A DNA stretch of 64,000 bases, taken from IMG/VR virus record IMGVR_UViG_3300046370_000202; one strand, written 5' to 3'. Below, piece by piece: positions 10,223 through 54,600 of the stretch. How positions within the stretch are numbered: position 1 is the stretch's first letter; every line of letters begins with the position of its first letter. The notes below the pieces were generated by a model. That model did not search any database. It was not told where the DNA came from and saw only the letters and a program-made list of their open reading frames with translations. The translations under genes and the position numbers were made by a program. The DNA comes from a virus.

Positions 10223-10228
10223 ATACCT

Positions 10229-30300: not shown

Positions 30301-33300
30301 AGAATTCCATCGAACAAATACTGCTTCACTGTTCATATCCATTATGTGAACACTGTTACCACCATTATAGATTGTTGCAACAGGAACCCTTGGATTTGAT
30401 CTTGCGCTATCATACACATAGACGTTATAACTATCAGCAACCGCATAGAACTGACGACCCGCATACTCTACTTCATAGGTGATTGTCTCACCGATGTCTG
30501 GAGTAATTAGAGGAACGTTTTCAGCACCAATTGTTGTCTGTAGTGCAGCTAGTGTACCAGTGTTTGTGTTGATTAGATTCTGTAGACTGTTATCAGCACT
30601 TTCATATGCAGATACAATTTCTTGTAGAGTATCTAATGTCTCTGGGGACGTACCGATAATTGCATCTAGTTGTGCTTGTAGTGCTGCGTCACCTGTGACG
30701 ACTGCACTTGCGTTAGCCTGTTCTGCCAACTGAGCACGAACAACTTCTGCGTCCAATGCATCTTCTACAGCATTGAGTTCGGCGACAGTTGCGCCACTTG
30801 CAGTTCGAGCTGCGTTATCTGCAACAATATCGTCAATTTGGTTCTGTAGAATTCCATCAGCACCAATACGTGAAGTTGTTTCGTCTGTAAGGTTTTGCGA
30901 CTGTGTGTTAATAAATGTCTGTAAGGAAGCGTCACCAGCTAGACGTGCAGATTCTTCTGCATCTATCTGTGCTTGTAGAGCGCTGTCAGAAGACATACGT
31001 GCAGTCGTCTCGATAGACGCCTGTGCGATGCGTTGAGTCTTCTCGTCTAATATGTCCGCCGCAAGATCAGCGTCACCAGCGATACGAGAAGTTGCTTCTG
31101 AAGTGTCGGCTGCAATACGTGCGTCTACTTCTTGTTGAAGTGCTGCATCTGCACCAGCTGTATCTGATAACTCAGTGTGTAGTTCATTAATCGCATCAAC
31201 TAGTGTTGAGGCAGATGTGTCTAGAGAACTAACATCACCAATCGCGGATGAGTTTGCAGTCATCAATGTCTGTAGATCACCATCAGCACTTTGGAATGCA
31301 GCTACGATCTCTTGTAGTGTATCCAAATTTTCTGGAGATGAACCCAAGATCGCATCAATCTGTGACTGGATGCTTGATAGATCTAAGTTTGCTAGATCCG
31401 AAGACTTCGCTAGTTCTACCCACTGACCACCGTGTGCAAAGTATGCCGCACCTTCTGCGTGGACGTGTGCAAACATACCGTGATTTGCAGATGCGTCTGG
31501 TAGATCTCCCATAGTAGAGAACAATGGGTGAGCTTGTCCACCCGCCTCAACTTGGTCAATCTTGTTTTGCAACAAGGCTTCTGCCGCTAAAGCGCGGGTC
31601 TCTTCTGCAGAGATTGCTGTAGCGTTTGCTTGTTCAGCCGCTGTTGCACGAGCCGTTTCTGCGTCTACTGCTGCCTGTACTGTTGCATCACCTGCAACAC
31701 GAGCGGTTGCTTCTGCGGAAATTGCACCAACACGAGCACTTGACTCTGCGGTATCTGCCGCTTCACGAGCTGAAACTTCTGCTGCTAGTGATGCGGTTAG
31801 ATCTGAATCGCCAGAGATACGCGATGCTTCTTCTGCATCAATAGATGACTGTAATGCATCGTCTGCGTTTTCACGTGCAGTTGCTTCTGCTTGAACAGCG
31901 AATGTACGTTCAGAGACTTCTTGAGTCAATGATGCATTTACTGCCGCAATAGTAGAAGAGTTGCCTGTGATTAGACCTGTAAGGTCACTATCTGCACCTT
32001 CAAACGCCGCCACAACTTCTTGAATTGTGTCTAGTGTTTCTGGAGATGTTCCAACGATTGCGTCTAGTTGTGATTGAATGCTTGATAAATCGCTACCAGT
32101 TACAGTATTCAACTGTGATTGTAGATCAGAGACCGCAGCTGCACGTGTTTGTGCTTCTGATAGGTCAGCAGCAATACGTGCTGCTTGTTCTGCGTCTACT
32201 GCAGCTTGTACTGTTGCATCGCCAGCAACACGAGCGGCCGCTTCTGCAGTTACTGCGTCTTCACGAGCAGTCTTTTCTGTTTCTATTGCCGCAGCGTTTG
32301 CTTGTTCTGCAGATGTTGCACGAGCAATTTCTGCATCAATTGCAGCACCACGTGCCGTTGCTTCCGCAGCGACTGCATCAGCGATATCCTGAGATACTGC
32401 CTCACGTGCGCGTACGACTGTGAAGAATAACTTATTGTCACCTTCAGCAATAGCGTCTGTGCTTGTTACTGCGATTGGAGTTGCTGTAACGCCGTCGTAT
32501 ACTTCCCAACGATCGTCTAGTTCGTTCCAACGTAGTTGAACTGCAGGTTCGTCACCACGCATGATACGAATACCTGCGTTAAGTACCGGAGCACCTGTAG
32601 AAACATTGCTGTTTAGATCGATGATGTTGTCAGCTACTTTTAAGGTCTGGCTGTCTAGAGTTGTTGTAGTACCCTCGACGGTCAAATTGCCTTCGATGGT
32701 TACATTATCTTCAAAGACTTTATCGCCAGTGATTGTACCGTCTGCATTTAAACTGTCAACATATTCTTTTGTTGCAGCGTCTGAAGCATCTACTGGAACA
32801 CCGACATTTGTAACTTTGTGTGTTCCCATATCAACAGCACCACCAAACTTAGTTGGTTCGCCGCCGACTGTAGAAATTGTTTCTCCAACGGACATTACTA
32901 GATCTGACTTCAACTGGACACTTTCGTCGCCAGCGTTTAGATCAATGTTACCACCACCTGTTGCGCCGAACGACAGGTTCTGACCTGCGTCTGCGTACAT
33001 AGTGATTGTACCGCTGTTGTCTTCTAGAATCTTAGTACCGTTAATGTACAGAGAGCCTGGACCGATGTATAGATCTTTCCATACGCGATCTGGAGAACCT
33101 AGTGTGTACTCGTTATCCAATGATGGAATTAGGTTTCCTGCCCAACCGTCACTGTCGTTATACGTGAACTGTGATGCTTGCAAACTTGCAACGTCTGCTT
33201 GACGTGCAACTGCTTCAGCAGTAATTGCGGCCGCGTTTAGATCGTCTGCCGTTATCGCACGTGCGATCTCAGCATTCAAACTATTTTGCAGTGCGTTATC

Positions 33301-33831
33301 GCCGGCAATACGGCGAGTTGTTTCAACTGCAAGATCATTCGCAACAGAAGTTATCTGTGTTGAATTGGCTGTTAGTTGAGATGAGTTTGCAGCTAGAAGT
33401 GATTGAATGTCACTATCTGCACCTTCAAAAGCGGAAACGATCTCGACAAGAGTATCAAGTGTTTCTGGTGAAGCGCCTAAGATGGAGTCAATTTGAGTTT
33501 GTAGTGAATCTACTGCTGCTTGAGTGTCGGAGTTAACTCCTAGTGAGTCAATCTGAGTTTGTAGGGATGCAATATCTGAAATACGTGTTGCTGTTTCAGA
33601 TGCGATTGCAACTGTGTTACTGTTTACATCTATGAAAATTTGTGAATCTGAGTCGACGATAGAACTGCCTGAACCAGTGAGTGCACCTTCATCTACTAGA
33701 GATGAGACTGCGTCTGCGATGGCCCCTGCAACTATAGTACCATCAGCTCGGATTATAACGACATCATTGACGGTTAATTCACCTTTTACGTCAACGCCGT
33801 TCTGAATCCTAAACTTTTTGTTAGTATTCAT
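18334..33831 (-). CDS. Giant 5165-aa fibre/adhesin: coiled-coil shaft, four beta-propeller-like inserts, PA14-like domain
   Basis: Ala/Glu/Arg heptad repeats. 13 copies (manual count) of I-x-G-x-SPETLDT-x-x-E-(I/V)-V-x-A-F, related to the tail-fibre motif AP.ALDTL.ELA.AL. DAATK.YVD motifs. FG-GAP-like blades (FG.S.A...VGA..DD....G.VY). PA14-like GYFKAPETANFTFRINSDN. Confidence 0.85.
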   Translation of the reverse strand: MNTNKKFRIQNGVDVKGELTVNDVVIIRADGTIVAGAIADAVSSLVDEGALTGSGSSIVDSDSQIFIDVNSNTVAIASETATRISDIASLQTQIDSLGVNSDTQAAVDSLQTQIDSILGASPETLDTLVEIVSAFEGADSDIQSLLAANSSQLTANSTQITSVANDLAVETTRRIAGDNALQNSLNAEIARAITADDLNAAAITAEAVARQADVASLQASQFTYNDSDGWAGNLIPSLDNEYTLGSPDRVWKDLYIGPGSLYINGTKILEDNSGTITMYADAGQNLSFGATGGGNIDLNAGDESVQLKSDLVMSVGETISTVGGEPTKFGGAVDMGTHKVTNVGVPVDASDAATKEYVDSLNADGTITGDKVFEDNVTIEGNLTVEGTTTTLDSQTLKVADNIIDLNSNVSTGAPVLNAGIRIMRGDEPAVQLRWNELDDRWEVYDGVTATPIAVTSTDAIAEGDNKLFFTVVRAREAVSQDIADAVAAEATARGAAIDAEIARATSAEQANAAAIETEKTAREDAVTAEAAARVAGDATVQAAVDAEQAARIAADLSEAQTRAAAVSDLQSQLNTVTGSDLSSIQSQLDAIVGTSPETLDTIQEVVAAFEGADSDLTGLITGNSSTIAAVNASLTQEVSERTFAVQAEATARENADDALQSSIDAEEASRISGDSDLTASLAAEVSAREAADTAESSARVGAISAEATARVAGDATVQAAVDAETARATAAEQANATAISAEETRALAAEALLQNKIDQVEAGGQAHPLFSTMGDLPDASANHGMFAHVHAEGAAYFAHGGQWVELAKSSDLANLDLSSIQSQIDAILGSSPENLDTLQEIVAAFQSADGDLQTLMTANSSAIGDVSSLDTSASTLVDAINELHTELSDTAGADAALQQEVDARIAADTSEATSRIAGDADLAADILDEKTQRIAQASIETTARMSSDSALQAQIDAEESARLAGDASLQTFINTQSQNLTDETTSRIGADGILQNQIDDIVADNAARTASGATVAELNAVEDALDAEVVRAQLAEQANASAVVTGDAALQAQLDAIIGTSPETLDTLQEIVSAYESADNSLQNLINTNTGTLAALQTTIGAENVPLITPDIGETITYEVEYAGRQFYAVADSYNVYVYDSARSNPRVPVATIYNGGNSVHIMDMNSEAVFVRWNSNAHIVYRYELSDLVLGITSSSKNYRPAEAGGQSVSAFAVSEDYIYVHETSGTDQIWRQPLSEGGTTGAVSTYTINGLNTYKMRVFGDKLYALRTSGTDTLWVWDIDATDGSLSNAHQLTSSDLNSDTIAWGSGELTGAFEASSTLIAVGAPNDDTQGINHGSVYLFNPDNLNEPHTKLYAPPEYASSNLQFGHSIALTDTRLIVGALDASSMSTTPSSNGLMFIYDSTNLILPPLVVESPDEGVSNFARSIHEESNRLLVRSASETGIYVYDLTNMDQDPINLIEPTNSTAGGTFGNRMAISPAATVTQSITDTIIPAAGLGNSINYLESKRQELRADLEANLAAIQSNDADIAAVAADVATNTANIATNAAAIVAVDADRTAFEASVNAERQTHRDAVQADIDQVNADRTAFENTVNASQAEFILDHDSDYTSFTSSVESAFATTNELQEEIRTRMGVGHVALPQDTTSITYDRQIPDQYYVVRRGDDETYVYTSANWSSTGQNVGVSTRIQFPDEYTSNNATDQMVVTRDYAIFLVDKANVSGEHSFLVYDLETINVSSTPIAVVDCEGFDRNLEYDGGTKLMVTKYQDHSDDSLGGVRVYDIPSLASGSAIYVESMVDDLPSSLNIPGPDVTDGDLWYGNHAAWNSTHIFVALGGQRKVVVYNKSDLSFVTTLSDTVTNGSDFGRVSVRASDTMVAVTSRNGQYNWSDGTGKVAVFDATDLSIPPVIITDNNMVRHYSSSDRPDNHYYYAFNSQDQIAVHDDYLFLGNTGHFYYGNNGRVYVIPKAIALQGDSAMPSNGTNSAGLLSWKDTTWGHSDNGSDARYAHEISVHGDLFVVNAHDYRQHSFNRTNLTMIHDINDLSLAPVKIEEIDDGTTSYASTVISPRATITESYTETFNPNDSLTSAVNYLNAKKEELLTAVGALTGSASFVEDVQAIEDNIDFKLAAQDQRFDSDKAEQVAIYAQANLDQSAVYAAANAEQASIYDSANAAHVAYFEQYTDGETAAREAADTTLQTNIDTEESARIAGDSNLQSQIDAILGASPDHLDTMVEIVSAFENADSDISNLLSTNATNNAVNATAISALESSVEAIASATEVDLDAKVPFVFVKKPEANTVLAYNGNNLNLSPIELTPNRESGETVDADMGYGVDVAVSSTKVVVAASNGEFFVYDASDLFSAPTIINSGVTSGDFGSSIVMTDDVIAISSVSDSSYGTVKLYDASSYALLSTIEPSVGSAGMGYGHSMAIRGTTLVVSSPKQQMTMESVVSVGFLYVYDITNPASSSLVATLRGPNSDVGIIGGSVTMNDRWIATSLTDKAVVWDRLNLSESPKVFSTGGLESGLTQGGLWGAKRSGQGGWSSGIDMPLSNASLYTNQINLGDEGDYYSYQFVGYFKAPETANFTFRINSDNQGLMWIGENALMNTSNRGTAEAIIYQTNVGTDTATVSMVEGEMYPILLSFTENVAGAWFQFTWQGGAQTSYTYDLTQHFYYYADEANFSPAHIPVNSIEPIILEDNKMYIGSYNGVSIWNDISTVNTTDYTDWKQAVAADSQVVAPNNEDQFGVAIGLMSGFLFVGSNSQSISVFEVANLDNPPNVKLIDSVSRNLESVPAELAPPVAEGLLTNADSTIGAINEVHNELDAEVVRALGIEAGLRTDVDANAATINTNIVDIANETSARVAGDSVLQAQIDNIVGTSPETLDTIQEVVSAFQNADNDIQTLISNNSTHLLSLENEISGGAGLTNLPNVMTEISRTVYQDQYMIVSGNKNSGSVYVFDANNPTEQPVKLTHPDGITGGYFGHAAAVVREYLVISDPYDDTIVSNQGAVFVYEIADLTIPPVRLHPNITSEADMQFGWDVTGTDEFIIVGCPGDDYTVPEASNTNTGSVYLFDVNNLGLSPTVLTPTHSQIELYGNSNDADNDDNTYFGRRVEVIDNMLVVGADNYGERDGFTGEYSGGHTEQYSSGSLRGYYGAIYTYDLTNLLNSGSSISNLSAINWHNDNYYNKYYASGESPSRGYGQYGIAMSSTHIFVGMPYDDYDPDGGKYDVGLISIHPRSNDYGVSSDYRFIRAPDWYEQNQNFGWDLATDENYLYVGVPYDDNPYGVNAGQVLVYELEGLYDNATQAGSYAPPPVFTLNAPDASAGDNFGYKISVNGGKLAVAAPYDDDQGTNSGAVYIYQTNLLTGVPVKITPSDLVDQDTTTTEQSFGYRSLSLTLASGAVEITEHVLPNSGISTGMNYLMHRTNQLEQLANDVNVNAYNYANNISVAQEGYGIGIADNAAAIATETTARADGDAAQQVEIDSLTTITTDLTSQLSAEISRSTTEDTILTQRVDILSSALQPDSDGDIRVEGLATFSDGISVGTSGGAIGHDPLSDAITIMSDLDMNEHQVLNIAEPTVDKDVTTKLYVDTQVSNEETRATTVETDLQAQIDHIVGTSPETLDTFQEIVSTLQGSDSDLLALMTSNATGVGGLNASLTTETANREAADTVLQSNIDAEEASRIAGDSDLQSQIDSNDTDISNLDSDVGAVSSLATTATTVVGAINEVHSELDAEVIRAVSAENAEETRALAAEGVLQSNINTESSSRIAGDASLQSQIDGLSNTQVADKGGLEVSLATEVARATLAEGALQSAIDAEELRATTAEGVNAAAVVTEQSRAEAVEAGLAADIAVETARATAAETQLANHLGANFTDGSITVDGLATFNGGLYFGDGTGTIGFNADVDNLQVLSNLDLMGNRIINYPTPVDSGDVTTKGYVDATTQAVSDRVDAILQGAGESLDTIVEVVAAFENADSDIQSLITSNSTSVTANTDAINAEVAARQQAITDEASARRNADSDLSAGLSNETSRALSAEGVLTSDLAAEVARATSAETGLASDIAAETSRATAAEGVNAQAIADETTRATTVEASLAQDIADESLRAQGAEAVLTSDVSANATAISGLQSQVAGVSTSSGSSNIEMSAEVDMSGNKITDMADPTAAQDAATKSYVDATVATEATSRTTEDTSLQSNIDAANARIDAILNGSVESLDTVVEVVSAFEGADSDIQNLITANASTISQNAAAIATEATDRANADSDEAALRVAGDAVLTADLAAEVARAQTAESAETSARVAADSDLQTQIDFIKENTDPAALDSLTELVSAFQDADSDVTTMVASNASAIAATNARTAGISVDSDSNVALSVGIEMGQNNIKDVNDVYANRAFIDTIESNDLKVQTGTVDFEGSIVNFGSSTIIGGGFGNATKAEIDQHLNVSAADSGEFLKWNGTDYEFTDYIQGRIASNQIVVEGTLKVEQPGSTIDWQDGLVHFGGSQVIVDEPTSANLAANKRYVDEADSDLNALLSTAISNEESRATTAEGVLTTNLANEISRATSAEATLASDISAEESRALAAEAAEASTRADADSDLQSAIDAEVARATAAEAVNAQAVVDEGTARTTADNTLQSNIDTVSGRVDAILNGSSESLDTIVEVVAAFENADSDLQTLISSNAGSHTANAAAITAEETRALTAEGVLQSAIDAEETRATGVETDLQSQITSEVAARSAADQSMREDLDSDIAAEAALRVAGDASLQSGLDVEVARATAAEGVLQSLLDSEQSARILSDQGLQSAITAEENARIAADAVLQSAIDAEELARTSADNALQANINAVDAAVTAITNGSPETLNQLVEVVAAFEDADSDLQTVISNLGGDASALTARVSTLESEMDATELATTSNANAISAETVARVAAVQVNADAITAESTARAAAITAEQNARAAAIVASESDRDSADAELQSQIDALSAEETAGKSSLQFQLGQEEDARIAGDSDLTDSLAAEVARATAAESALSSDISAEESARVSADASLQSQIDFIVSNTDSASLDSLTEIVAEFQSVDGTLSGLISSNGSRITSLETNVGTINSWTTDNLSEGSINKYWTEQRTKDCLSGGLCIDYNSTTGEIAIDEVEAASSLTVAESHDANALGGQAPTYYRINVYDAAGNLVN

Positions 33832-40311: not shown

Positions 40312-41016
40312 TTAAACTGCAGAAATGTCGTCAAGAACCATCTCACGAAATTCTTCAGAAGTCTCTGACCAGTCAAATACATAAGAAACGGTAACACGCC
40401 AGTCATCTGTAGATGCGGCATGATACATTAACTTTTCTGGTTCGTCATAGTGTCCGAAGTATGCAGCCTTACAAGTCCATACTCCTGGCGCGTCTTGACA
40501 ACGAACAACTTCTTTCGTTTCTGGATGAATGTAGTCAAAGTAACCAGAACCATCTTCTGAGTAAGAGAAGATAAGATTAAAACCTGGCGCATTTGCATTG
40601 TTATGCCATGAGATATACCCGCCCGGTGGATAGACTGCTGCAAGTGCATTGTGTTTAACAGACAAGAAGTTCATCATCTTGTCGTTTAGATCACGTAGGT
40701 GATGAGTCATGTCACGTTTAAAGATTGGGTCTGCATCTTTTTCAAACATCTTATGTGCGCGGTCAGATAGTTTGAAGTTATATCCAACCATCTCTTCGGG
40801 AAATCCATCATGTCCCTTGCCCATTGCAACGATGTCATTCATGTATCCTTCACCAACGTAGTATGAACGTTGACGAATATGTTCTGCTGCAGTCAAGTGA
40901 CAGTTCTTTTCAAAACCCTGCATAGTATGCAATTTGGCATACTGGTCTAAAACCTCTAGCAACTCTGGGTTATTTACCTCTACGTGCTTTAGATATTGGT
41001 CGTTTACCTGTGTCAT
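40312..41016 (-). CDS. Putative Fe(II)/2OG-oxygenase-like DSBH protein with H-x-N motif; paralog of 2340..2987
   Basis: YPPGGYISWHNNANAPGFNLIFSYSEDG.GYF...W.CKAAYFG...YHAA...RVTVSY. Confidence 0.6.
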   Translation of the reverse strand: MTQVNDQYLKHVEVNNPELLEVLDQYAKLHTMQGFEKNCHLTAAEHIRQRSYYVGEGYMNDIVAMGKGHDGFPEEMVGYNFKLSDRAHKMFEKDADPIFKRDMTHHLRDLNDKMMNFLSVKHNALAAVYPPGGYISWHNNANAPGFNLIFSYSEDGSGYFDYIHPETKEVVRCQDAPGVWTCKAAYFGHYDEPEKLMYHAASTDDWRVTVSYVFDWSETSEEFREMVLDDISAV

Positions 41017-41741
41017 ACGATTGGAGTATCCTTGTTCAACCCAGCCGAGAAGTGTCTTAAAATTACGGGTCCCGTCTCAGGTCGTGTTCTTGCCCAATTG
41101 AGGGCATTGTAATAATTCCACCTCAAGTCATCATCAAAGATACCAACCTTGAGGTCCTTATACTTTTCTTCCTTCTCAGTTAACCACCAGAGCGAGAACT
41201 GATCCCAAGACTTGAGACTGTCTGCATACCCTTCCGGCCACCAAGAGTCGTTCATCTGTCTGAATGTCAAGTCCCACCAATCGTCCATGAATTCACGTAC
41301 AATCGGTTTACTCATATCATACAAACAAACGCCACCGCATAATGTAAACTTCGCCATACCCTCTGGTGTAGAGAAGTCGCGTTCTGCGTAGATGTAATCT
41401 CTATCATCTGTTAACGCAGAAAACACCACATCGTGGTCTTTCATCTCATCCCAAACTTTTACAATGTCTTCGTGCTCACATTCCATATCAGCATCAATGT
41501 ACATTGTCAAGTCATACGGAGACTTTGCCATCCCCCACAACTTCGCACGGTAGTGATCATCACAAAAGATGATATCATCCGCGACTTCGCGACCACGATC
41601 ATCAATAAACCGTTCTTCGGTCACTAAACAAATCTTGCAATCCTCATAGTAATCTCTAATGGATTCGGCAAGATTCAATGCGTACAAATAAAAGTTGCGT
41701 TTCTTAGACGCAACTAATAAAAATCCTTTACTCTTCTCCAC
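41013..41741 (-). CDS. GT-A fold glycosyltransferase, GT8-like
   Basis: RAKLWGMAKSPYDLTMYIDAD (DxD), GGVCLY, WDQFSLW, RWN, VILRHF. Confidence 0.82.
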   Translation of the reverse strand: MEKSKGFLLVASKKRNFYLYALNLAESIRDYYEDCKICLVTEERFIDDRGREVADDIIFCDDHYRAKLWGMAKSPYDLTMYIDADMECEHEDIVKVWDEMKDHDVVFSALTDDRDYIYAERDFSTPEGMAKFTLCGGVCLYDMSKPIVREFMDDWWDLTFRQMNDSWWPEGYADSLKSWDQFSLWWLTEKEEKYKDLKVGIFDDDLRWNYYNALNWARTRPETGPVILRHFSAGLNKDTPIV

Positions 41742-42189
41742 TGTCTTCGGCCTCTAGTTGTTCTTGCAGAATCATAATTGAGTACATATCTACTTCAATC
41801 TTTGACTTCGCCCGACGCAGTTTTGCCTTTAACTTGCGGTTCTTAGAGTTTTTAATCTCCTCAACCTCAAACGCTTCTAGTTTGTAGTTGAACAGTTTTT
41901 CAAGCTTACGTGCCTTTTGATGTTCTTCTTCACGTATCTTTTCTTCTTCAGCTTCTGCCTTCTTGCGAACAACACGATCAGATGTTTCCTTATCAATCGC
42001 ATCTTCACCTAGGGCATCAACAACTTCATTAAACAGTTCGTTCTCACTACCATCCTTATCATGACGATGTAAAAACATTTGTTGGCGCGTCACTCTACCA
42101 ACGTCATCTTCAAGTTCTAGAATACAGTTTATTTCTTTCTTTTCGTCTGTTTCCCAGAACGCATTATCCATCCAACGCTTATAACTCAT
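41728..42189 (-). CDS. Hypothetical charged helical protein, candidate fibre chaperone
   Basis: 153-aa ORF with GGAG RBS directly after the 1800-aa gene, overlapping the GT start; function inferred from position only. Confidence 0.55.
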   Translation of the reverse strand: MSYKRWMDNAFWETDEKKEINCILELEDDVGRVTRQQMFLHRHDKDGSENELFNEVVDALGEDAIDKETSDRVVRKKAEAEEEKIREEEHQKARKLEKLFNYKLEAFEVEEIKNSKNRKLKAKLRRAKSKIEVDMYSIMILQEQLEAEDSGEE

Positions 42190-42295: not shown

Positions 42296-45200
42296 TTATG
42301 CAACACGTACGTATAATGTATATGTTTCAGTAACCTCTGTAAGCGTATCTGAAATCGTTGCACCCACGTAGTTACCCAAGAAAGATCTTGCATAGTTACC
42401 AACGTAATCTCGAGCATAATTACCACCAAATGTACGTGAGTAATTACCTGTGAAGTCTCCAACATAGGCAGAGTCACGATTACGTGAGTATGCACCAGAG
42501 TATGCAGAAGTACGGACACGAGCATATGCAGAGACACGGACACGAGAGTAATTACCTACGAAGTCGCGTGAGTAAGTGCCAGTATATTCACCAGTAAATG
42601 TGCGTGAATAATCACCGACATAGTTACCACCGAAGTCGCGAGTATATGTGCCAGTGTATTCACCAGCAAAGTCACGGGAGTAGTTACCTACATATTCCCC
42701 AGCGAAGCCGCGTGAGTAGTTGCCCGCATACTGACCAGAGAAGTCTCGAGTATATGTGCCAGTGTATTCACCCGCGAATCCACGAGCATAGTTACCTACG
42801 AAGTCGCCGACAAAGTCACTTGCATAAGCCCCAGTGTATTCACCAGCAAATGTTCTTGCATAGTTACCAGTAAAGTCTCCAGCAAAATCACGTGCATAAT
42901 TACCAGCAAATGTTCTTGCATAGTTACCAGTAAATGTGGCATTATATGTTCCCGCATACTCACCAACAAATCCACGTGAGTAAGCACCAGTATATTCACC
43001 AACGAAGTTGTTGTTGTAAGTACCAGTGTATGCGCCTGTGTATTCACCTACGAATGTTCGGTTATAAGTTCCTGCGTATTCGCCAACAAATCCACGTGAA
43101 TAGTTACCCGCAAAGTTTCCACCAAAGTCACGTGCGTAGTTTCCTACGTAGTTTCCTCCGAAGTCTCCAACAAAATCACCGATAAAGTTACCAGCGAAGT
43201 TACGAGAGTAGTTACCAGTGAATGTGCGTGAGTAGTTGCCTGCAAAATCTCCAGCGAAGTCACGCGAGTAGTTACCAGTGAATGTACGTGAATAGTTACC
43301 AGCAAAGTTTCCTGCAAAGTTAGTCACACGATCACGAGCATATGTTGATGCACGGTTGCGGATGTATGCAGAAACACGAGTCACGACATATGCAGAGTAA
43401 CGAGTACGAGTAGATGTACGAGTATACTCACCAGTAAAGTTACCGGCATATTCACCAGCAAATCCACGTGAGTAGTTACCTACAAAGTCACCTGCATAGT
43501 TACGGGCGTAGTTACCGATAAAGTTACCAGCGAAGTTTGTTACTCTATCACGAGTGAAGTTACCTGTGTAATCAGTAATTCGTGTACGTGCATACGAAGA
43601 GTTGCGATTACGCGTAGATGTACGTGTTGATGTACGAGTAAAGTTACCTGTGTAATCAGTAATTCGTGTACGTGCATAAGCTGAGTAACGTGTGCGTGTT
43701 GAAGTAATTGTCGATACACGTGTGAAGTTGCCTACGTAGTTTGTTACGCGATCACGAGCGTAAGCTGAGTTACGTGTACGAGTATAGTTTGTTGCACGAG
43801 TTCTTGCATAAGCACTGTAACGAGTACGAGTAGATGTGCGCGTAGATGTACGAGTAAAGTCACCAACATAGTTAGTAATACGAGTACGTGAGTAGGCACT
43901 GTAACGAGTACGTGTTGAAGTACGTGTTGACGTACGAGCATATTCACCTACGAAGTCACCAGCATAGTATCCAGTACGTGTGTAGTTACCTGTATTGGTA
44001 AAGGTCTGAACACGATTACGAGTGAACGCACGAGCGTAGTTACCTGTGTAGTACAATGTACGAGTGTAGTAACCAGTACCTGTACCCGTACGTGTTGACG
44101 TACGGCTGTAATTGCCTTCATATGAGAACGGACGACTACGAGTATAGTTTCCTACAAAATCACCAGTAAAGTTGGTTACACGATCACGTGAGTAGTTTCC
44201 AGCGTATGAGAACGCACGACTTCGATTATACGTAGAAGTACGGGTGCGCGTATAGTCGCGAGAGTAGTTTCCAGCGTAAGAGAATGCACGACTGCGAGTA
44301 TAATCCTCTGCGGATACACGAGTTCGGGCATAGTCCCCAACAAAGTTGCCGGTAAAAGAACCAGCCGTGCCTTGAGTAACCAACCCATAGTAATAATTTT
44401 GAAAAAGTTGCATTTGGAGAGTGCCTCTTGAATAGGTCACTCCATTGTGCGTAATTGAAGTTGCGTTGGCGTTAGTGCTGGTCGCAATAGTCGTAGCGTT
44501 AATAACAACAGAAGCTCCCGCAGTACTCTTTAACCAATATGTGACATATTGGGCGTACTGAGTAGTACTTCCCGAATTAACAGAAGTTCGGGTTGATGTG
44601 CGTGCGTAGTTGCCTACATACGAAGTACCGCCCGTAACTCCAGTATAGTTTCCTACAAAGTTTCCTGTAAAAGAACCGCCAGAACCACTGTAAGTAACGC
44701 CGTAACGAGTTTCCAGCCCAAAGTTCTCTCGGAAAGTGCCTCGATTATACGTGACACCACCATTGGTTATTGATGTCATGGTGGTTCCTTGCGCTATAGC
44801 GACAGAAGAACCGCCCACATAAACAATTACAGTACTGGATTCATTATCAATAACCCAACCATCTGTCACTGTGTTGAAAGGACTCTCCGAATAATCGTCA
44901 GTAGCACCACCAGAACCCGTAGAAACGCGAGTAGAAGTTCGGGTGAAATCTGTACTAGTTGGAGTTCCAGTGTAGTTACCTAAATAAGATCCCGTTCGGT
45001 TTCGAGTAAAGTTTCTTGAATAGTTTCCGCCGAAGTTACGCGAATAATTACCCAAATAAGATCCAGTACGAGTACGGCCATAGTTGCCTACAAAGTTGCC
45101 TGCGTAGTTGACATCTGGTTCGCGAGTATAGTTACCCAAATAAGATCCGGTTCGTGTACGCGCATAGTTACCTACAAAGTTGCCTGCGTAGTATAGTGTA

Positions 45201-47698
45201 CGAGTATAAGCTGGGGTACGTGCATAGTCTGCAGCATAGTTACGTGCATAGTTGCCAGTGAAGTCGCCGACATAGTACAGTGTACGTTGATAGTTCAAAG
45301 TACGTGTTGAAGTACGTGTTGATGTGCGTGAATAGTTTCCTACAAAATCACCAGCATAGTTACCAGCAAAACCACGAGAATAGTTGCCTACAAAGTCGCC
45401 AGTAAATGTAGTCGCGTAATTACCTACGAAATCACCACCGTAGTTGCCTGCGAATCCTCGAGCATAGTTGCCTACAAAGTCGCCTACATAGTCTCCGACA
45501 TAATTTCGGGCGTAGTTACCAACAAAGTTACCTGCGAATGTCGTTGTATAGTTGCCTGTGTAGTTACCTGCAAAGTCACCAGCGTATCCACGAGCATAGT
45601 TTCCTACGAAATCTCCGGTGAATACTGTGGTATAATTACCTACGAAATCGCCACCGTAGTTGCCCACAAATGTACGTGCATAGTTTCCTACGAAATCTCC
45701 GGTGAATACTGTAGTGTAGTTACCCACGAAGTTACCAGCGTAATTAGTAACACGGTCACGTGTGTATGCAGATGCACGAGTACGGGTAGATGTACGCGCA
45801 TAAGCTGAGTAACGTGTTCTCGCAGAAGTACGAGTAGAAACACGAGCATAGTTGCCTACGTAGTTTCCTGCAAATCCGCGTGAGTAGTTACCTACGAAGT
45901 TACGTGAATAGTTGCCTTGGAAAGAACGTGAGTAGTTTCCAATAAAGTTGCCAGCAAAATCGGTCACACGATCGCGAACATATGAAGAAACACGGCCACG
46001 AGTAAACTCACCCGTGAAGTTAGTCACACGATTGCGTGTGTAAGTAGAAACACGGGCACGAGCATAAGCATTTGCAAAGTTAGTGACACGGTCGCGAGTG
46101 TAGTTAGTGATGCGGGTTCGTGTGTAATCTGCAGAGTATGCTGATGTGCGTGTACGAGTTGAAGTTCTTGTATAAGCTGAGTTACGAGTACGTGAGTATG
46201 TTCCGGCATAAGCTGATACACGGTTTCGTGAATATGTACCAGAGTATGTACCTGTGTATGAAGAAACACGAGTACGAGCGTAAGTGCCTGAATAGGCAGA
46301 GTTACGAGTACGTGCATATGTACCTGCATAAGCAGAAACACGACCACGAGTGTATGCAGAAGAACGAGAACGCGTGAACGTACCAGTAAAGTTCTGTACG
46401 CGATTACGTGTGTAAGTAGAAACACGTGCGCGTGAGTAAGTTCCCGCAAAGTAACCAGTAAATGCAGTTAGTCTATTACGAGAATATGTAGAGATACGGT
46501 TACGAGCATACGCGCCAGAGTACGCAGATGTGCGTGTGCGCGAATATGTTCCAACGTATGTTGAGACACGGGTTCTCGCATAAGTGTCTGAATACGCGGA
46601 TGTACGAGTTCGTGAGTAGGTTCCTGTATAAGAGGAAACACGTGTACGAGTGTAATCAGCCGAGTAAGTAGAAACACGATTGCGAATATAAGTCCCTTCA
46701 TATGAAGATGGTCGCGTACGAGTGTACTCTCCGACGAAATCTCGAGAATAGTTACCTACGAAATCTCTATTATATGTTCCTGTGTAGTCTCCAACAAAGG
46801 TGCGGGAGAATGTATCTACACTATTACGTGTGTATGTTGAAACTCTATCGCGAGTGTAAGCCGAAATACGCGTACGTGCGTATGATGAGTTACGTGTGCG
46901 AGAGTATGAACTATTTACAATAGTACGTCGGGTGTTAGTTGCATCACCAACAACAGACCATGTTCCAGGCAGTGTTGGTACACCTTGCGCAGCTGAACGG
47001 AACTGATAAGATCCGATCGCACCGGCCGTCGCACGGAGGGATTTGACACGTTGACCAATAGTATATTTGATCTGATCATCCGACATTTCTTTGAATCCGT
47101 CAAAGTTGGATGACCCATCGTAACAAATAGCAACGGGACGCACTGCGTTAACCACAGGCATCGTTACACGTTGATAGATGTTGTAATTTGTTACTGTACC
47201 ATCACCGTGTGTGTCTGAGAAGACATTTGCGAGGAAGACCGTATAGTCTGCGCCAGGTGATGTACTAGAAAGTTTGAATGTACCGACATAGTCATTCTGG
47301 ACCATGTTACTGAGTACACGACTTGCAAGATTATCCAAATCTGGATCTACCATTTCGTAGAAGCCTGGATTTGGGCCTGAGTCATAATAACCCACAGGAC
47401 GAACAAAATCGGCACCAGTTTCATCTGCAACACCGCCCACCTGACGTAGAGGTGTGGTTACAGTTGTAGATGTGATATTAGTAATTGGGTGAGTACCCGC
47501 AGATTCATTAAAATACGCGTCCGTAAATGAACCAATATTAACATCACCAGTTAAACTGATATCTCCGACTTCACCAGCAGATGCATCTGCTAATGCTTGT
47601 CCCACCGCATAAGAAAGATAGTTCTCTTCTAGCGGTGTAAATTCCTGTAGGTCACCATTAGTATTTTTAATTTTTAGTGGGATACTAGATGCTGACAC
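42296..47698 (-). CDS. 1800-aa tetrapeptide-repeat fibre-like protein with mirror-complementary arms (predicted giant antiparallel hairpin with forked tip)
   Basis: GTG start after a late promoter; ~260-aa N-terminal domain; residues 265-912 and 1133-1780 built from [YF]xRx, [YF]xGx, Rx[ST]x and SxRx units; two central ~65-75-aa domains; C-terminus YTLYVRVA. Confidence 0.85.
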   Translation of the reverse strand: MSASSIPLKIKNTNGDLQEFTPLEENYLSYAVGQALADASAGEVGDISLTGDVNIGSFTDAYFNESAGTHPITNITSTTVTTPLRQVGGVADETGADFVRPVGYYDSGPNPGFYEMVDPDLDNLASRVLSNMVQNDYVGTFKLSSTSPGADYTVFLANVFSDTHGDGTVTNYNIYQRVTMPVVNAVRPVAICYDGSSNFDGFKEMSDDQIKYTIGQRVKSLRATAGAIGSYQFRSAAQGVPTLPGTWSVVGDATNTRRTIVNSSYSRTRNSSYARTRISAYTRDRVSTYTRNSVDTFSRTFVGDYTGTYNRDFVGNYSRDFVGEYTRTRPSSYEGTYIRNRVSTYSADYTRTRVSSYTGTYSRTRTSAYSDTYARTRVSTYVGTYSRTRTSAYSGAYARNRISTYSRNRLTAFTGYFAGTYSRARVSTYTRNRVQNFTGTFTRSRSSAYTRGRVSAYAGTYARTRNSAYSGTYARTRVSSYTGTYSGTYSRNRVSAYAGTYSRTRNSAYTRTSTRTRTSAYSADYTRTRITNYTRDRVTNFANAYARARVSTYTRNRVTNFTGEFTRGRVSSYVRDRVTDFAGNFIGNYSRSFQGNYSRNFVGNYSRGFAGNYVGNYARVSTRTSARTRYSAYARTSTRTRASAYTRDRVTNYAGNFVGNYTTVFTGDFVGNYARTFVGNYGGDFVGNYTTVFTGDFVGNYARGYAGDFAGNYTGNYTTTFAGNFVGNYARNYVGDYVGDFVGNYARGFAGNYGGDFVGNYATTFTGDFVGNYSRGFAGNYAGDFVGNYSRTSTRTSTRTLNYQRTLYYVGDFTGNYARNYAADYARTPAYTRTLYYAGNFVGNYARTRTGSYLGNYTREPDVNYAGNFVGNYGRTRTGSYLGNYSRNFGGNYSRNFTRNRTGSYLGNYTGTPTSTDFTRTSTRVSTGSGGATDDYSESPFNTVTDGWVIDNESSTVIVYVGGSSVAIAQGTTMTSITNGGVTYNRGTFRENFGLETRYGVTYSGSGGSFTGNFVGNYTGVTGGTSYVGNYARTSTRTSVNSGSTTQYAQYVTYWLKSTAGASVVINATTIATSTNANATSITHNGVTYSRGTLQMQLFQNYYYGLVTQGTAGSFTGNFVGDYARTRVSAEDYTRSRAFSYAGNYSRDYTRTRTSTYNRSRAFSYAGNYSRDRVTNFTGDFVGNYTRSRPFSYEGNYSRTSTRTGTGTGYYTRTLYYTGNYARAFTRNRVQTFTNTGNYTRTGYYAGDFVGEYARTSTRTSTRTRYSAYSRTRITNYVGDFTRTSTRTSTRTRYSAYARTRATNYTRTRNSAYARDRVTNYVGNFTRVSTITSTRTRYSAYARTRITDYTGNFTRTSTRTSTRNRNSSYARTRITDYTGNFTRDRVTNFAGNFIGNYARNYAGDFVGNYSRGFAGEYAGNFTGEYTRTSTRTRYSAYVVTRVSAYIRNRASTYARDRVTNFAGNFAGNYSRTFTGNYSRDFAGDFAGNYSRTFTGNYSRNFAGNFIGDFVGDFGGNYVGNYARDFGGNFAGNYSRGFVGEYAGTYNRTFVGEYTGAYTGTYNNNFVGEYTGAYSRGFVGEYAGTYNATFTGNYARTFAGNYARDFAGDFTGNYARTFAGEYTGAYASDFVGDFVGNYARGFAGEYTGTYTRDFSGQYAGNYSRGFAGEYVGNYSRDFAGEYTGTYTRDFGGNYVGDYSRTFTGEYTGTYSRDFVGNYSRVRVSAYARVRTSAYSGAYSRNRDSAYVGDFTGNYSRTFGGNYARDYVGNYARSFLGNYVGATISDTLTEVTETYTLYVRVA
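42359..44302 (-). repeat. C-terminal (returning) arm of 12-bp/4-aa degenerate repeats
   Basis: Residues 1133-1780 parse into tetrapeptide units plus four 2-residue shifts. Confidence 0.9.
44963..46906 (-). repeat. N-terminal (outgoing) arm of 12-bp/4-aa degenerate repeats
   Basis: Residues 265-912 parse into tetrapeptide units plus four 2-residue shifts. Confidence 0.9.
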
Positions 47699-47818: not shown

Positions 47819-48268
47819 TTATGCTGGGGCGTCAGGCCATGGAACATCGTCCAAACTTTCAATTCCGTCTAGAACGTCTGTGATATCACGTAGTTCTTGA
47901 CGATAACCCGCCCACGCATTCTTCATATCTTCTGACAGTGGAGCATCTGGAATTTGTGTCCAATCTGTTCCCGCAAGAAGACCATTTCTTCGTGTACGAA
48001 TATCTTTTATTAGATCCTCAAGATCCCATACCCAGTTTCGTGATTCTGTATCCCATCGACAGTATTGATTTGGTGCGTCCTCACGAGGGTGAAACCTTCC
48101 ATCATCAAAATAATTTCTTTTTATAAACTCAAACCCATTCTCAATAGGAAAGTCTAAATGAAGGATTAAAGATCCATCTTCCTGAAATCCTTGTTCAGGC
48201 AATCTTCCATATGCAGTTTGAAGGTTTATTATTTGTTGATCTTTAATGTATGCAATATGATTTACCAT
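47819..48268 (-). CDS. Phage tail (fibre) assembly chaperone
   Basis: IRTRRNGLLAGTDWTQIPDAPL....K.AW..YRQELRDIT....VPWP signature. Confidence 0.85.
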   Translation of the reverse strand: MVNHIAYIKDQQIINLQTAYGRLPEQGFQEDGSLILHLDFPIENGFEFIKRNYFDDGRFHPREDAPNQYCRWDTESRNWVWDLEDLIKDIRTRRNGLLAGTDWTQIPDAPLSEDMKNAWAGYRQELRDITDVLDGIESLDDVPWPDAPA

Positions 48269-49011
48269 TATAATAATTCTCCTATTAAAATTTGATTTCT
48301 GATTCTTCCATATGATGTAAAGTATTCATCTCCAAATGGATTAGAACCAGACCTATCGTCTTCTTCGTTCCCCGATTGTCCTGTTGAGTTTATAACTGTT
48401 ACCTCATTAGCTTGTACCGTGAGAGAAGAAGTGTATGTGAAACATTGTTCCTGTGATGCTAAATCAGTAGGACTTGGGTTATAGTAAGTCCAAACCCAAG
48501 GCAGAGAAGATTCTAAATCACTTACTGAAATATATTTAGATCTATGCCCTAAATCATACCCATAAGTTATATCTGGATATGAATGTGAATCTGTGATTTG
48601 GAAATGATTAGAACCAACTGCCCTAGAGTCAAACTGAACACTTTCGTTTTCATTATAAATGATAAGTCCATAGTCATCGGTGGAACTAATTTGACCAGCC
48701 TTTTTTATAACGAAGTAATCTAAAGATACCGGATATTTATTGTCATTGTTTGAAACGTATCTATAAAAACTAAAAGAGTTTGTGCTGGATGTAGGAAAAG
48801 ATTGACCGTTCGTTGGTTCTACAAAAAAATTATAAATTGAACTTCCCGAGGTGTGCAGAGAAGGATCTGCTCGGACAAATAATATTTCACCCGAAGTCAG
48901 TGTAATGGATGAAGCAACACCAGCCTGAGTAACTATATAACTACTCAGCGGGTTTGATGAATCGAACATCAAACCGTTTGCATCATTAAATACTTGTAAT
49001 CCGTATGACAT
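48268..49011 (-). CDS. Tail-tip accessory / putative receptor-binding protein with two YGL modules
   Basis: MSYGLQVFNDANGLMFDS and DYGLIIYNENESVQFDS, typical of genes following J-like fibres. Confidence 0.65.
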   Translation of the reverse strand: MSYGLQVFNDANGLMFDSSNPLSSYIVTQAGVASSITLTSGEILFVRADPSLHTSGSSIYNFFVEPTNGQSFPTSSTNSFSFYRYVSNNDNKYPVSLDYFVIKKAGQISSTDDYGLIIYNENESVQFDSRAVGSNHFQITDSHSYPDITYGYDLGHRSKYISVSDLESSLPWVWTYYNPSPTDLASQEQCFTYTSSLTVQANEVTVINSTGQSGNEEDDRSGSNPFGDEYFTSYGRIRNQILIGELL

Positions 49012-49961
49012 TATGACAACCTAAAAATTTCAATATTGAAGGCAACATCGGTTGAACTTTGATTAGTAATACTTATAGTATTACCAGAAAAAGATGATGA
49101 TATCCCATTCGGGTCGGCACTAGGAAATAATCCTACAGCATATTGAGAGGTGTTAGTGACGTTTGGTATTGTTATTTGAGTAGTTCCGCCCGCAGTAGCT
49201 GTCGCAGCAAAACTTAATTCTTGTTTGTTTAACACAACATCAACTTTAGAAGATATTATTAACGTTTGATTTTCATTAAAAATCTCCAATCCATACCCTG
49301 TGCCCGAACCTATAGGTGTTGGTCTTTCGTCCGCATCACTATTCGTTGTTGTTCCACCACCACCATCAACAACATTAACGATGTTCATAGTACCAGACTG
49401 TTTGGTTAAAGATGTACCAGACACTGTCCCAGAAACAGTAACTTTAAATGATTCATTCGACTCACTCAATGAATCAGTCGATAATACAACTGAAAAGGTA
49501 CCAGTATTATTAGATATGTTTACTGTTCCTGTCACTGAAGAAAAGTCAGAGTTAGAGGTCGTTACATTATTAATCGCCCAGTTAAGTTGAGTTGTTCCCG
49601 AAGGGAAATTGGCAGTATTGACATCAAAACTTATTGTATCACCTTCAGAATGCCAAGCTGATCCATTACTAGGAGAAATTGTAGTGATAGAAGGTGTGGA
49701 ACCGCTACCACCGCCCCCACCACTACTAGCACTATTGCTTATAGAGTAGTAAGTCGAAGTGGAAGTTCCAACAAATGGACTGGTGGTTGTTACTGTTTCT
49801 TCAACATCACCTCTTGTGTAAGTGGTACCTTCGAATACAAAAGAAGATGCGTCTGACGGAGTAACTGTGGCACTAACACCATCATATGCAATGAAAGCAC
49901 CAAATTGACTAGAAACCCAATAGTAATATGGAGCAGTTGTCCTTGAATATTGAAACGACAT
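49011..49961 (-). CDS. Modular tail-tip accessory protein: tip domain, Calx-beta/Ig-like domain, YGL module
   Basis: N-terminal YYW...GTTYTRG...YYSI domain; Gly/Ser linker; EGDTISF....DF...TGTV.I.....D...E.NESF.V; GYGLEIFNEN. Confidence 0.65.
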   Translation of the reverse strand: MSFQYSRTTAPYYYWVSSQFGAFIAYDGVSATVTPSDASSFVFEGTTYTRGDVEETVTTTSPFVGTSTSTYYSISNSASSGGGGGSGSTPSITTISPSNGSAWHSEGDTISFDVNTANFPSGTTQLNWAINNVTTSNSDFSSVTGTVNISNNTGTFSVVLSTDSLSESNESFKVTVSGTVSGTSLTKQSGTMNIVNVVDGGGGTTTNSDADERPTPIGSGTGYGLEIFNENQTLIISSKVDVVLNKQELSFAATATAGGTTQITIPNVTNTSQYAVGLFPSADPNGISSSFSGNTISITNQSSTDVAFNIEIFRLS

Positions 49962-51696: not shown

Positions 51697-54600
51697 TTAG
51701 TGATGCGCAACGTCAGTTCCATCTTCGGAATCTGACCCTGTACTGTCACCACTGCCTCCTGCACCCGAAGTGCCAGAACTTTGTGCTGGGGTTAACTCTC
51801 TAGAGATGCGGTGATAGAATATTGAGATGCCGGGATTACTCTGGTCTAATTCTTCTAGATCACCCTTGAAGTAAGTGTACCCATCATTAGCGTCAATAGA
51901 TACAATTTGTGTATCATCAAGACCTTGTGTTTGAGAAAGGTCATATGTTATACTAGATCCATTCCAATAAATGCTAGCTATATTAAATTCGTCACCGCCG
52001 CTTATTATTTGAGAGATAGAGAAATAATACTGAGGTGCTGTTCTAGAATAGAAATCGAGTTCCGGTTCAGGTTCTGGTTCGGGCTCTGGTTCTGGTTCAG
52101 GACCTGGCTCAGGTTCGGGCTCTGGTTCTGGTTCAGGACCTGGCTCAGGTTCCGGTTCTGGTTCGGGTTCTGGTTCAGGTTGTGGTTCGGGTTCTGGACT
52201 TGGAGCAGGAGTATCTACTGGGTTCAAGTCTAGGTCAAACAACTCTCCAAACTTCTGCAGTCCGCTAGCAGTGATCAAAGAGATTGCACGAAGGTCTGTA
52301 ATCATCGGAGACTTAGATGAATTGTCAGACTTCATTACAATCATGACTTGGAACACAGTAAATGGTTCTGCGTCTAGTGTGTACTCATAGTCACGGAAAA
52401 TGTCCGGATTCTCATCTGTAGGCATTGGTGTGTCAATTTCAATTTTCGCCCACAACGCATCAGCAAATGCGTTCTCATCTAGAGATGTACGTGCGTACAC
52501 TTCAAACTCTGCACCACGTGCTCGGTTCGCTGCGAAGATAATTTTGAGACCTTCTGACAACTCATCAATGATCACAGGTGTTGTAATGTGTTGAGTTGCG
52601 TTTCCATTATCGATGACATTTTCTAGAGTAACTACAGAAACTCTTTGTAGATCAATCACAGGGGAAACTTTAGGGTCGCCCGTTGACATATCTAATTTGA
52701 ATTTTAATGTTTTTACGGGAGAGTTGTCTGAGGTAGCGACAACATTCGGATTCGTATTTACATTTAGGTCATTGAGCGACACGCTTTGTATTTTACTTAC
52801 AGGAGGATCCTGTGTATATGAGTGTTGTTGAAATGTACGACTAGACCCATACGAATCCGCCAGAGCTTTAGTTACGGTAGGTTGAATACTTGTAGACCTA
52901 GGTGAGAAAGACTGCACTTGTGGAATATATTGATCATAAACCACCTGTTGAGTTGCCGTGACGTTATTACCACCACCTTGCGCAGAACTTGTTGCTGCAG
53001 CCGGTGCGGTAATGGTATACCCTTCCCACGTCGGAGATTCTACAACAAATGATCCTGTAAGTTTGTCGGGAGTAAGTCCGCCCACATTACTTGATACGTC
53101 TGATAAGACGACAACATCACCACTACTAAATCCATGCCCTTGGTGTTGCACTTTAACTTTATTTGATCCTGCTTCAATAGTTTCAAACGGACTCTGAATC
53201 AAAGTCACTTTAGGTAACTCTGCATTCTCTAAGTGTAGTACACCAGAAGGAGCAAATTCTGCGCGATCCAGTTTAAACATCAAATCCTTAGTTTGATCTG
53301 GAGTCCACGTTGATCCGTTCTGCGACAAGAACAGAGAACCTAGTGTTGGTTGACGTGATACTCTGGCTTCACGAGAAGGTCCTACAACAAACTCATAAGT
53401 CTGTGCGGTATATACATTATAATCTACAGACTCAGCAAGTAGTACTATAGCATATTCTTCGCCAGGAGTCAAGTAAATTGGTTCATCAAATACAACTTCT
53501 GTTCCTCTTTCAGACAGGTAATCTATACCCTGTTCTTGTGCGTCTGCTAAAGGTGTCACCATGATATCTTCTGAATTGACAAACTTTACTGCGCCTGGTA
53601 CAATACGATTTGTAGGTACGCCATTCTCTACTGCTCGGATTTGAACTTGCATAGGAATGACAGAGTCTTTACTCTCAACATAAACATGTGCTTTGGTGAT
53701 AAAGATGCCGTTTGGATTTTCTACTTGATCAACAAAGAATGTCTGCGCAAGTGGATCTCGCCAATAAGTTGTTTCAACAATACGCGTTGTACGCATAGTA
53801 CGTTGTATTGTCTCGATAGTACCCACCGAAGTGTATCCTGCGCGACTGACCGCAGTAGAATCTTCTTCATTGTTTTTGCTGATGTCAAGTAGTTTAAATT
53901 CTTGCCGACCAGTTCTAAAGCTAATATCTGGAGTGTTGGGTAAGAAGAAAGAACCTATCAGTTCTCCTTTATCGTCAGTTACTAGGTCGCCTTTGCCGCC
54001 TAATTCGGTAGGATATTCGGTTGCATTAGAATATTGATTGCCGTATTCGGTTGGGTCGTCAGAGAAGTTGACATAAGTAGACTCTGGTCTTACCCAATCA
54101 TTCACATCTTTGTTGCCAAAGAAAGCCCACATAGGACTATTAGGCCTCAATCCCTGTACCCTAAATGATATTTTGCGAGAACGCATGAAAGGAATAATCT
54201 CCACATCCAGAATGCGTTCTCCTATAAATTCTTGAATTGTTTTTGACGTTACTTTAGATCTAATTTTATTATTAGGTCTTGAGAAGAAAGTAGGCAAATA
54301 AGTCGTAATACGACGTACAACATTCTGCATTATATCGGGCAGTCTTTTAGTCTCTACCCATTCGTCAGATGACGGAGACAATGTCATATGTCCGTTAGAA
54401 GTGATAACCGCAAAAGGGTTAATGTTGTCTGTACCAGTCGCTAATAGTTGAGATATTATTGTAACGTTTGTATGAGGTAGAGTAACAAGGTCTCCTTTCT
54501 TAGAGGCGGTATTTTGTATGTTGGTTGCATCATACATTAAACGTACAGAATTTTCCACGAATGATGGACGCAATAAACCATCCGGATCTACCGATGCTCT

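Follow-up and report, generated by a model that had tools for sequence, protein, structure and literature searches.

Can a single phage fibre protein fork at its far end? The question is raised by one gene in a 64,000-nucleotide stretch of viral DNA from IMG/VR record IMGVR_UViG_3300046370_000202 (the window; positions are counted from its first letter). The open reading frame at 42296-47698, on the minus strand, starts with GTG and encodes an 1800-residue fibre protein (P0001). An earlier note on this DNA had proposed that a long main stem in the protein stops at residues 912/1133, and that the segment in between holds two nested stems of the same code, each capped by a globular domain, so that the fibre would end in a Y-shaped tip displaying two different adhesin heads. 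Our best explanation overall, to which we assign a probability of about 0.5, is a fold-back fibre with a duplicated stalk-and-knob apex, in which each copy pairs its own flanks to form a three-way junction.

The shaft of the protein is written in four-residue units. Their phase is unbroken, without a slip, over residues 245-912 and again from residue 1121 to the C-terminus. Between an N-terminal base domain (residues 1-264; 46907-47698, minus strand, as for all features of this gene) and a C-terminal tail (residues 1781-1800, ending in ETYTLYVRVA; 42296-42358 including the stop codon), the units form two arms of 648 residues each, with no insertion or deletion. These are an outgoing arm of 162 units (residues 265-912; 44963-46906) and a returning arm of 162 units that is mirror-complementary to it (residues 1133-1780; 42359-44302). 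Position 1 of the 324 arm units is Tyr or Phe in 241, Arg in 60 and Ser in 17, position 3 is Gly in 133, Arg in 114 and Ser or Thr in 53, and positions 2 and 4 carry small or polar residues.

To define the register, unit 909-912 was placed opposite unit 1133-1136 and the arms were walked outwards, giving 162 unit pairs. Without exception, the RxSx units (48) and the STRT-type units (15) lie opposite a [FY]xGx unit. The partners of [FY]xRx units are [FY]xRx (32) or [FY]xGx (26), and RxSx is never found opposite RxSx or [FY]xRx. In a four-class test, the true register contains 75 compliant and 5 non-compliant unit pairs, compared with 25-46 compliant and 27-46 non-compliant pairs in 24 slid registers (about 40/35) and 33 compliant and 39 non-compliant pairs in a parallel control. 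Shuffles (n = 20,000) gave a mean of 40.5 non-compliant pairs (standard deviation 3.4, minimum 28). The mutual information between paired units is 0.64 bit versus 0.04, and in a scan of all antidiagonals the true one scores 171.5 and the runner-up 82.5. A Zuker-like folding of the unit classes likewise recovers the main stem; the apical stems are too short for its helix-start penalty. At the level of single residues, mutual information is highest for position 1 opposite position 3 (sum 1.01 versus 0.86 and 0.61), a difference that is not decisive. Complementary side chains along one face of the ribbon appear to fix the register, with the signal at positions 1 and 3. The pairing rule appears to be that an aromatic residue faces Gly, Arg or Ser, that an Arg in position 1 faces Gly, and that Arg is not set opposite Arg. 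The main fold-back stem and its end at 912/1133 are thus supported. The whole chain seems to double back into a single, very long ribbon of two strands, and the arms would have β-ribbon geometry.

A DNA palindrome was considered as a trivial cause of the mirror pattern and rejected. The gene has no inverted repeats, and therefore the pattern exists only at the protein level; the direct-repeat spacings in the gene are all multiples of 12 nucleotides. Near the apex (residues 801-912 and 1133-1245; 44963-45300 and 44100-44302), RTGS-YLGN lies three times opposite R(A/P)FS-Y(A/E)GN, and RTLY/RTGY units lie four times, at mirrored positions, opposite out-of-phase xxYx units. These mirrored motif pairs count in favour of the fold-back and may mark places where the ribbon is kinked or reinforced.

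We next consider the segment between the arms. The coordinates and flank strings quoted in the earlier note were located exactly: 44303-44962 on the minus strand encodes residues 913-1132. Module 1 (residues 913-1021) opens with the junction linker PTSTD (913-917; 44948-44962), where the repeat phase moves by one residue, and continues with the N-side flank of stem 1, FTRT-STRV-STGS (918-929; 44912-44947), tip domain 1 with its hinges (930-1009; 44672-44911) and the C-side flank FTGN-FVGN-YTGV (1010-1021; 44636-44671). Module 2 (residues 1022-1132) repeats this layout. It opens with the linker TGGTS (1022-1026; 44621-44635), followed by the N-side flank of stem 2, YVGN-YART-STRT-SVNS (1027-1042; 44573-44620), tip domain 2 with its hinges (1043-1114; 44357-44572), the C-side flank FTGN-FVGD-YART-RVSA (1115-1130; 44309-44356) and the closing linker ED (1131-1132; 44303-44308). 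The hinges are rich in Gly and Ser (GSGG, SGSGGS, NSGS and QGTAGS), and VTGGTS links the modules. Flanks included, the two modules align end to end with 35% identity and an expectation value (E) of 9e-17, and the domains alone are recognized as homologous by phmmer (domain E-values 2e-4 and 2.4e-5). The description of the two apical domains as diverged homologues joined through Gly/Ser hinges is thus confirmed, and sequence comparison gives solid grounds for regarding the apex as a tandem duplication of a flank-knob-flank module.

Both tip domains are predicted to fold into compact knobs. In AlphaFold2 models, the knob 1 core (residues 942-1006) is all-β and compact with a predicted local distance difference test score (pLDDT) of about 90, and the knob 2 core (residues 1051-1111) is all-β and compact with a pLDDT of 92-97. 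The single tip of the relatives corresponds to knob 1 (48-55% identity), while domains 1 and 2 share 29-35% identity. C48C1, L003-L008 and L018, which are the closest relatives, have one apical knob. An iterated knob profile finds the domain in 53 of about 150 family proteins, nearly always once and in mid-chain. Tandem knobs were detected in this protein and in P0021; P0009 has a tandem by eye, of which the profile detects the second domain only, and P0080, P0082 and P0063 carry a second copy at the C-terminus.

Relatives also bear on how the fibre is folded. A homologue search returned 159 sequences at E <= 1e-3, all metagenomic, and a scan of IMG/VR gave 31 loci of the fibre family. The family set comprised P0004-P0009, P0021, P0094, L003-L033 and the homologue from phage C48C1 (WJE88074.1). 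A small dynamic program working on unit classes was used to fold nine complete relatives. The outgoing and returning spans are equal within a protein and different between proteins in seven of the nine: 564/564 in L008, 566/566 in L029, 602/602 in both L018 and L013, 636/636 in L012, 748/748 in L022 and 510/512 in L020, beside 648/648 here. The arms are unequal in L015 (628/849) and L033 (642/875), which have a globular insertion of ~220 residues in the returning arm. The L015 insertion (residues 1163-1390; open reading frame 5089-10458) resembles, by eye, the first insertion of the C48C1 homologue. In L015 and L033 the apex is a bare loop of 26 residues without a knob, and P0004 has a tight loop of 4 residues between 853-876 and 881-904; tight loops of this kind show that fold-back within one chain is possible. 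The distant members P0004, P0005, P0006, P0007, P0009 and P0021 follow the same code over 34-50 unit pairs with 0-3 violations. The C-terminal motif ETYTLYVR(V/T)A is shared by this protein, P0004, P0005, P0009, P0021, P0094 and C48C1, and the base domain is probably where the conserved tail docks.

The family also varies in its branching. The C48C1 homologue (L002:612-10655; OQ984149.1 141011-151054) is the nearest named relative, with 3347 residues. It has a single apical knob, and its returning arm carries all five of its large globular domains; its outgoing arm is continuous. It also contains a tandem duplication of ~75 residues (about residues 2008-2157), which may be genuine or may stem from assembly. 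The arms of P0094 are unequal, and for this protein the code predicts a three-way junction closed by 612-639 : 955-982, with a side hairpin of 9 units (640-675 : 714-749) and a stem of 6 units (750-773 : 925-948) topped by a domain of 130 residues. At the level of the code, branching and a variable number of heads appear to occur in the family. This agrees with the expectation that homologues would differ in their number of tips or branches, as a single tip is usual, two are present in P0021 and probably in P0009, and side hairpins are predicted in P0094 and P0004. A further relative, P0002 (1798 residues, at a contig end, 65% identity), has a LamG-like domain (PF13385) and FG-GAP-like repeats (PF14312) in its base domain; these insertions precede the repeat arm, and the record ends within the outgoing arm. 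Identity to relatives is 61-77% in the base domain, which is the figure for close relatives, 44-66% in the arms, and 30-50% or undetectable in the knobs. The knobs are the most diverged region of the protein, in line with the variability predicted for the tip domains, and lie at the farthest point from the base domain.

Whether the apex is a fork depends on how the four short flanks pair. If each module pairs its own flanks, stem 2 places SVNS opposite FTGN, STRT opposite FVGD, YART opposite YART and YVGN opposite RVSA, giving three S:G pairs and one R:R pair with no violations. The probability of this by chance, estimated from random pairs of 4-unit stretches of the shaft, is about 0.011. In stem 1, STGS faces FTGN, STRV faces FVGN and FTRT faces YTGV, giving two S:G pairs, again with no violations; the corresponding chance probability, about 0.076, is weak taken alone. 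Stem 1 is better supported by its counterparts in single-tip relatives. The C48C1 knob is preceded by FSRT-STRT-STRT-STRT-STGS and followed by YTGN-FTGN-FGGN-FTGN-YAGT, so that in single-tip modules the flank length changes on both sides together, from 3 units per side here to 5 in C48C1. In L003 and L005, too, the flank before the knob is Arg-type and the one after it Gly-type, an arrangement found in 6 of 6 closely related tip modules examined. In addition, RVSA (1127-1130) gains its required Gly-type partner (YVGN 1027) solely in the own-flank topology. When the register was left free, own-flank pairing scored higher than a swapped pairing in all three two-tip proteins (7.0 versus 4.5 here, 10 versus 8.5 in P0009 and 5.0 versus 0.5 in P0021). 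The statement that the nested stems obey the code of the main stem is therefore upheld as far as the flanks fit the rule; that they actually pair, and pair within modules, is what we infer. The Y-shaped, two-headed tip is partly supported, with own-flank pairing the more parsimonious of the two topologies.

Several observations weigh against this interpretation. The swapped pairing, which joins 918-929 to 1115-1126 and, around TGGTS, 1010-1021 to 1027-1038, is also free of violations, and the score gap between the two is small. Stem 1 has just two clearly compliant unit pairs. The pairing rule was derived from the same protein, which makes the apex test not fully independent, and since the modules are duplicates, their two flank codes are not independent observations. 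Among the 31 IMG/VR loci of the closest subfamily no two-tip relative was found, leaving covariation specific to a fork unobservable. Structure prediction of the apex gave confident knobs and no paired flanks. A monomer run on residues 869-1176 (5-row alignment) was confident for knob 1, with the stems and knob 2 below a pLDDT of 50, and a run on module 2 alone (residues 1022-1136, 44 rows) was confident for the knob, with the flanks below 50. The module 2 model does contain isolated bridges at 1035/1039 and 1115/1119, the first residues of predicted unit pairs; they are a hint only, lying in low-confidence regions of a construct in which the flanks had no alternative partner.

What else could the apex be? 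The most serious competitor, which we hold to be unlikely, is an apex that is swapped or compact and has no true fork. The outer flanks (918-929 : 1115-1126) would extend the main stem and 1010-1038 would form a hairpin of its own around TGGTS, or the four flanks would make one sheet or collar that holds the knobs side by side as a compound head. The swapped arrangement yields two S:G pairs and one R:R pair in the outer stem and one S:G pair in the inner, TGGTS resembles the tight turn it would then have to be, and the inter-domain linker of P0009 is self-complementary (YTRT RMST YSRD - TLG - YTGN FEGN YTGA). Own-flank and swapped contacts could even be present together, as a strand within a sheet offers an edge on either side. 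What tells against it, besides the lower scores in 3 of 3 two-tip proteins, is that RVSA would be left without a Gly-type partner, unlike all 48 RxSx units of the main stem, and that a relative with a single tip can only pair the two flanks of its knob with one another, a fold that a duplicated unit is expected to keep.

We consider it improbable that the flanks do not pair at all, being flexible leftovers of the shaft repeat whose code is inherited composition, with the knobs strung like beads on Gly/Ser-rich linkers. The apical stems have just 3-4 units, stem 1 alone falls short of significance, the hinges are rich in Gly and Ser, and AlphaFold2 placed no confident structure in any flank, all of which would suit such an apex. 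It would leave unaccounted for the chance value of stem 2, the Arg-type N and Gly-type C flanks in 6 of 6 close modules, the extension of both sides to 5 units in C48C1, and the fact that these same flanks form the upper end of the main stem in relatives with one tip. Finally, the mirror complementarity could lie between two antiparallel chains, in which case the apex would not exist and the central dyad region would consist of residues 913-1132. An antiparallel homodimer would give an identical constant i+j pattern, and sequence alone cannot separate pairing within a chain from pairing between chains. We regard this as very improbable, because such a fibre would be bipolar, with a base domain at either end, and unsuited to baseplate attachment. 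In addition, tight loops within one chain (4 and 26 residues) and side hairpins occur in relatives, and the C-terminal motif is conserved along with the base domain.

We therefore return to the fold-back fibre with own-flank pairing, for which the following model can be drawn. The chain would exit the base domain of 264 residues, run out over 648 residues in four-residue units, turn at the far end and come back antiparallel over another 648 residues, with its C-terminal tail probably docking on the base domain. An ancestral apical unit, consisting of an Arg-type strand, a hinge, a β knob of 60-70 residues, a second hinge and a Gly-type strand, would have been duplicated in tandem. Each copy would most likely pair its own flanks into a stalk just 3-4 units long (4-5 nm if β), making the end of the fibre a three-way junction that bears two different knobs. 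Knob 1 would correspond to the single tip of the relatives and knob 2 would be the diverged, additional copy. The duplicated stalk-and-knob unit probably gives the fibre two different host-binding heads, and these would mean two binding specificities or greater avidity. The form that a 'Y' would take on the virion depends on the oligomeric state. The Y shape proposed in the earlier note thus stands in so far as there are two modules and own-flank pairing scores higher; the violation-free swapped pairing keeps it from being settled.

A wider possibility, advanced tentatively and held with less confidence than the model itself, is that the family uses an evolvable pairing code with RNA-like stems, bulges, side hairpins and multibranch junctions, in which duplication of modular stem-plus-knob units diversifies fibres and the fork is a natural protein three-way junction with two heads. 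If the fork is true, the family can branch, with stem-plus-knob units open to duplication or insertion and each piece held in its fold by the pairing rule. This would offer abundant marine phages a simple modular path to multi-headed recognition fibres. As a protein architecture, too, it would be uncommon: a short pairing rule would suffice for reading its topology and perhaps for designing it. Two different heads per fibre suggest dual receptor use or a wider host range in an uncultured T4-like marine virus. The family is large and lacks a Pfam entry or a solved relative, and one structure would open the whole class.

The likely role of the knobs was approached through fold and sequence comparisons. 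The nearest shapes to knob 2 belong to the Gp38 family: the top ESM Atlas cluster (80% PF05268) has a template modelling score of 0.53 over 81 residues with a root-mean-square deviation of 3.3, and the second-ranked BFVD hit is a Gp38-family structure with a probability of 0.92 but a Foldseek E-value of 0.46. This resemblance is weak, which also counts against the proposal, and it lacks sequence support: none of the 44 tip modules matched PF05268. VIA-align searches of both knob models against 48,161 PDB chains gave a best Z of 3.4, and neither they nor Foldseek against the PDB produced a usable fold match; an ESM Atlas feature search with knob 1 gave no usable match. A whole-library profile search with the tip domain produced 6 matches, too few for a deep knob alignment, and a word-based homologue search limited to the apex, in which candidates were swamped by repeat words, found nothing. 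The knobs are likely to be the host-binding parts. Of the two different adhesin heads in the original proposal, the two diverged knobs are present, and 'adhesin' is a reading of their position, their divergence and the weak resemblance to the Gp38 fold.

The knob profile also reaches beyond this gene. With filters off, the iterated profile matches residues 1747-1808 of a neighbouring protein of 1859 residues (51697-57276, minus strand; E 1.3e-5), and the knob may be a module common to several fibre proteins of this phage. A weaker match covers residues 3-78 of a protein of 316 residues (49011-49961, minus strand; domain E 1e-4, whole-protein E 5.9). P0124, a protein of 168 residues found in the whole-library search, carries a single knob-like domain (E 2e-7) and has an N-terminal stretch that is hydrophobic and membrane-anchor-like by eye; the knob therefore occurs beyond fibre proteins.

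The genomic setting is that of a tail. The source IMG/VR record is 160 kb long and ~93% complete. The large genes of the window all lie on the minus strand and form a tail-fibre/baseplate block, to which the fibre gene belongs. The block encodes baseplate wedge proteins (PHROG 438, E 2e-69) and several proteins of 1300-5200 residues, among them one of 5165 residues (18334-33831, minus strand) besides others of 1300-1900 residues. The baseplate wedge protein of the window shares 64% identity with its C48C1 counterpart (OQ984149.1, Kyanoviridae) and ~26-28% with those in Synechococcus, Prochlorococcus and Pelagibacter myoviruses. The phage is an uncultured marine T4-like myovirus. Directly upstream of the fibre gene is a gene for a tail-fibre assembly chaperone of 149 residues (47819-48268, minus strand; Pfam PF16778 Phage_tail_APC, E 9.7e-16; PHROG 4912), and this gene also precedes the C48C1 homologue. 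The 1800-residue protein would be a receptor-binding fibre, and receptor binding is a reasonable expectation.

By sequence, this fibre stands apart from described families. A Pfam search of the whole 1800-residue protein gave no family at E <= 1, phmmer, run with the full-length sequence on every PDB chain, gave nothing at E <= 1, and its PHROG match is a group of unknown function. The base domain matched nothing in Pfam, and nothing in the PDB by sequence even when a profile of 20 sequences was used. In the literature on tetrapeptide-repeat or fold-back fibres and on phage C48C1, we found no description of this fibre family. Three overlapping small genes (153, 242 and 234 residues) lie directly downstream at 40312-42189 on the minus strand, and their order is kept in C48C1. 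None of them matches Pfam at E <= 0.01, so that an assignment as glycosyltransferase and oxygenase genes gained no support.

How does this fibre compare with known systems? The needle of T4 gp37 has about 50-70 residues per strand and is held together by seven Fe ions on HxH motifs. Its tip (PDB 2XGF), the subject of Bartual et al. 2010 in PNAS, is reportedly a trimer whose chains run out and back to form a six-stranded needle with a head at the turn. The protein described here would share that course, in that the code and the covariation of the arms indicate a chain that runs out and returns antiparallel with its head at the turn and not at the C-terminus. Like gp37, it is a fibre of a T4-like myovirus with an assembly chaperone. 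Unlike gp37, its arms are 648 residues each, about ten times longer, and follow a strict 4-residue unit code; the protein contains no HxH motif and neither arm contains a His; phmmer finds no sequence relationship in the PDB, and no Pfam family matches; and the apex bears two modules. The iron sites of the gp37 needle are described elsewhere (PMC6957217, PMC6116203).

A second point of comparison is the Gp38 adhesin of Salmonella phage S16 (PDB 6F45), a monomeric cap with repeated out-and-back excursions of the chain and variable distal turns (PMC6851490, section 2.7). As in S16 and other T2-type Gp38 proteins, we find a putative host-recognition protein at the fibre end, an out-and-back chain and variable segments at the distal turns. 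S16 Gp38 has about 250 residues and combines a β-helix with a polyglycine-II sandwich built from Gly runs, whereas the protein studied here would be one ribbon of about 650 residues. Its Gly runs reach a length of 2 at most, no 4-residue unit holds more than one Gly, polyglycine-II motifs are absent, and there is no PF05268 match by sequence. By analogy, the S16 Gp38 precedent suggests that a monomeric reading of this fibre deserves to be taken seriously. The features that define the gp37 and Gp38 families by sequence are absent, and the protein is assigned to neither.

A further parallel to the proposed architecture is the multibranch loop of RNA, used here only as an analogy. The physical basis differs, as side chains would pack on a β ladder under a loose rule in which Gly-type units accept any partner, and, unlike for RNA, there is no thermodynamic model and short stems are not uniquely assignable. 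What the two would have in common is a linear polymer with a pairing rule, in which duplication of a stem-loop leads to a three-way junction and compensating changes keep the lengths of the stems matched.

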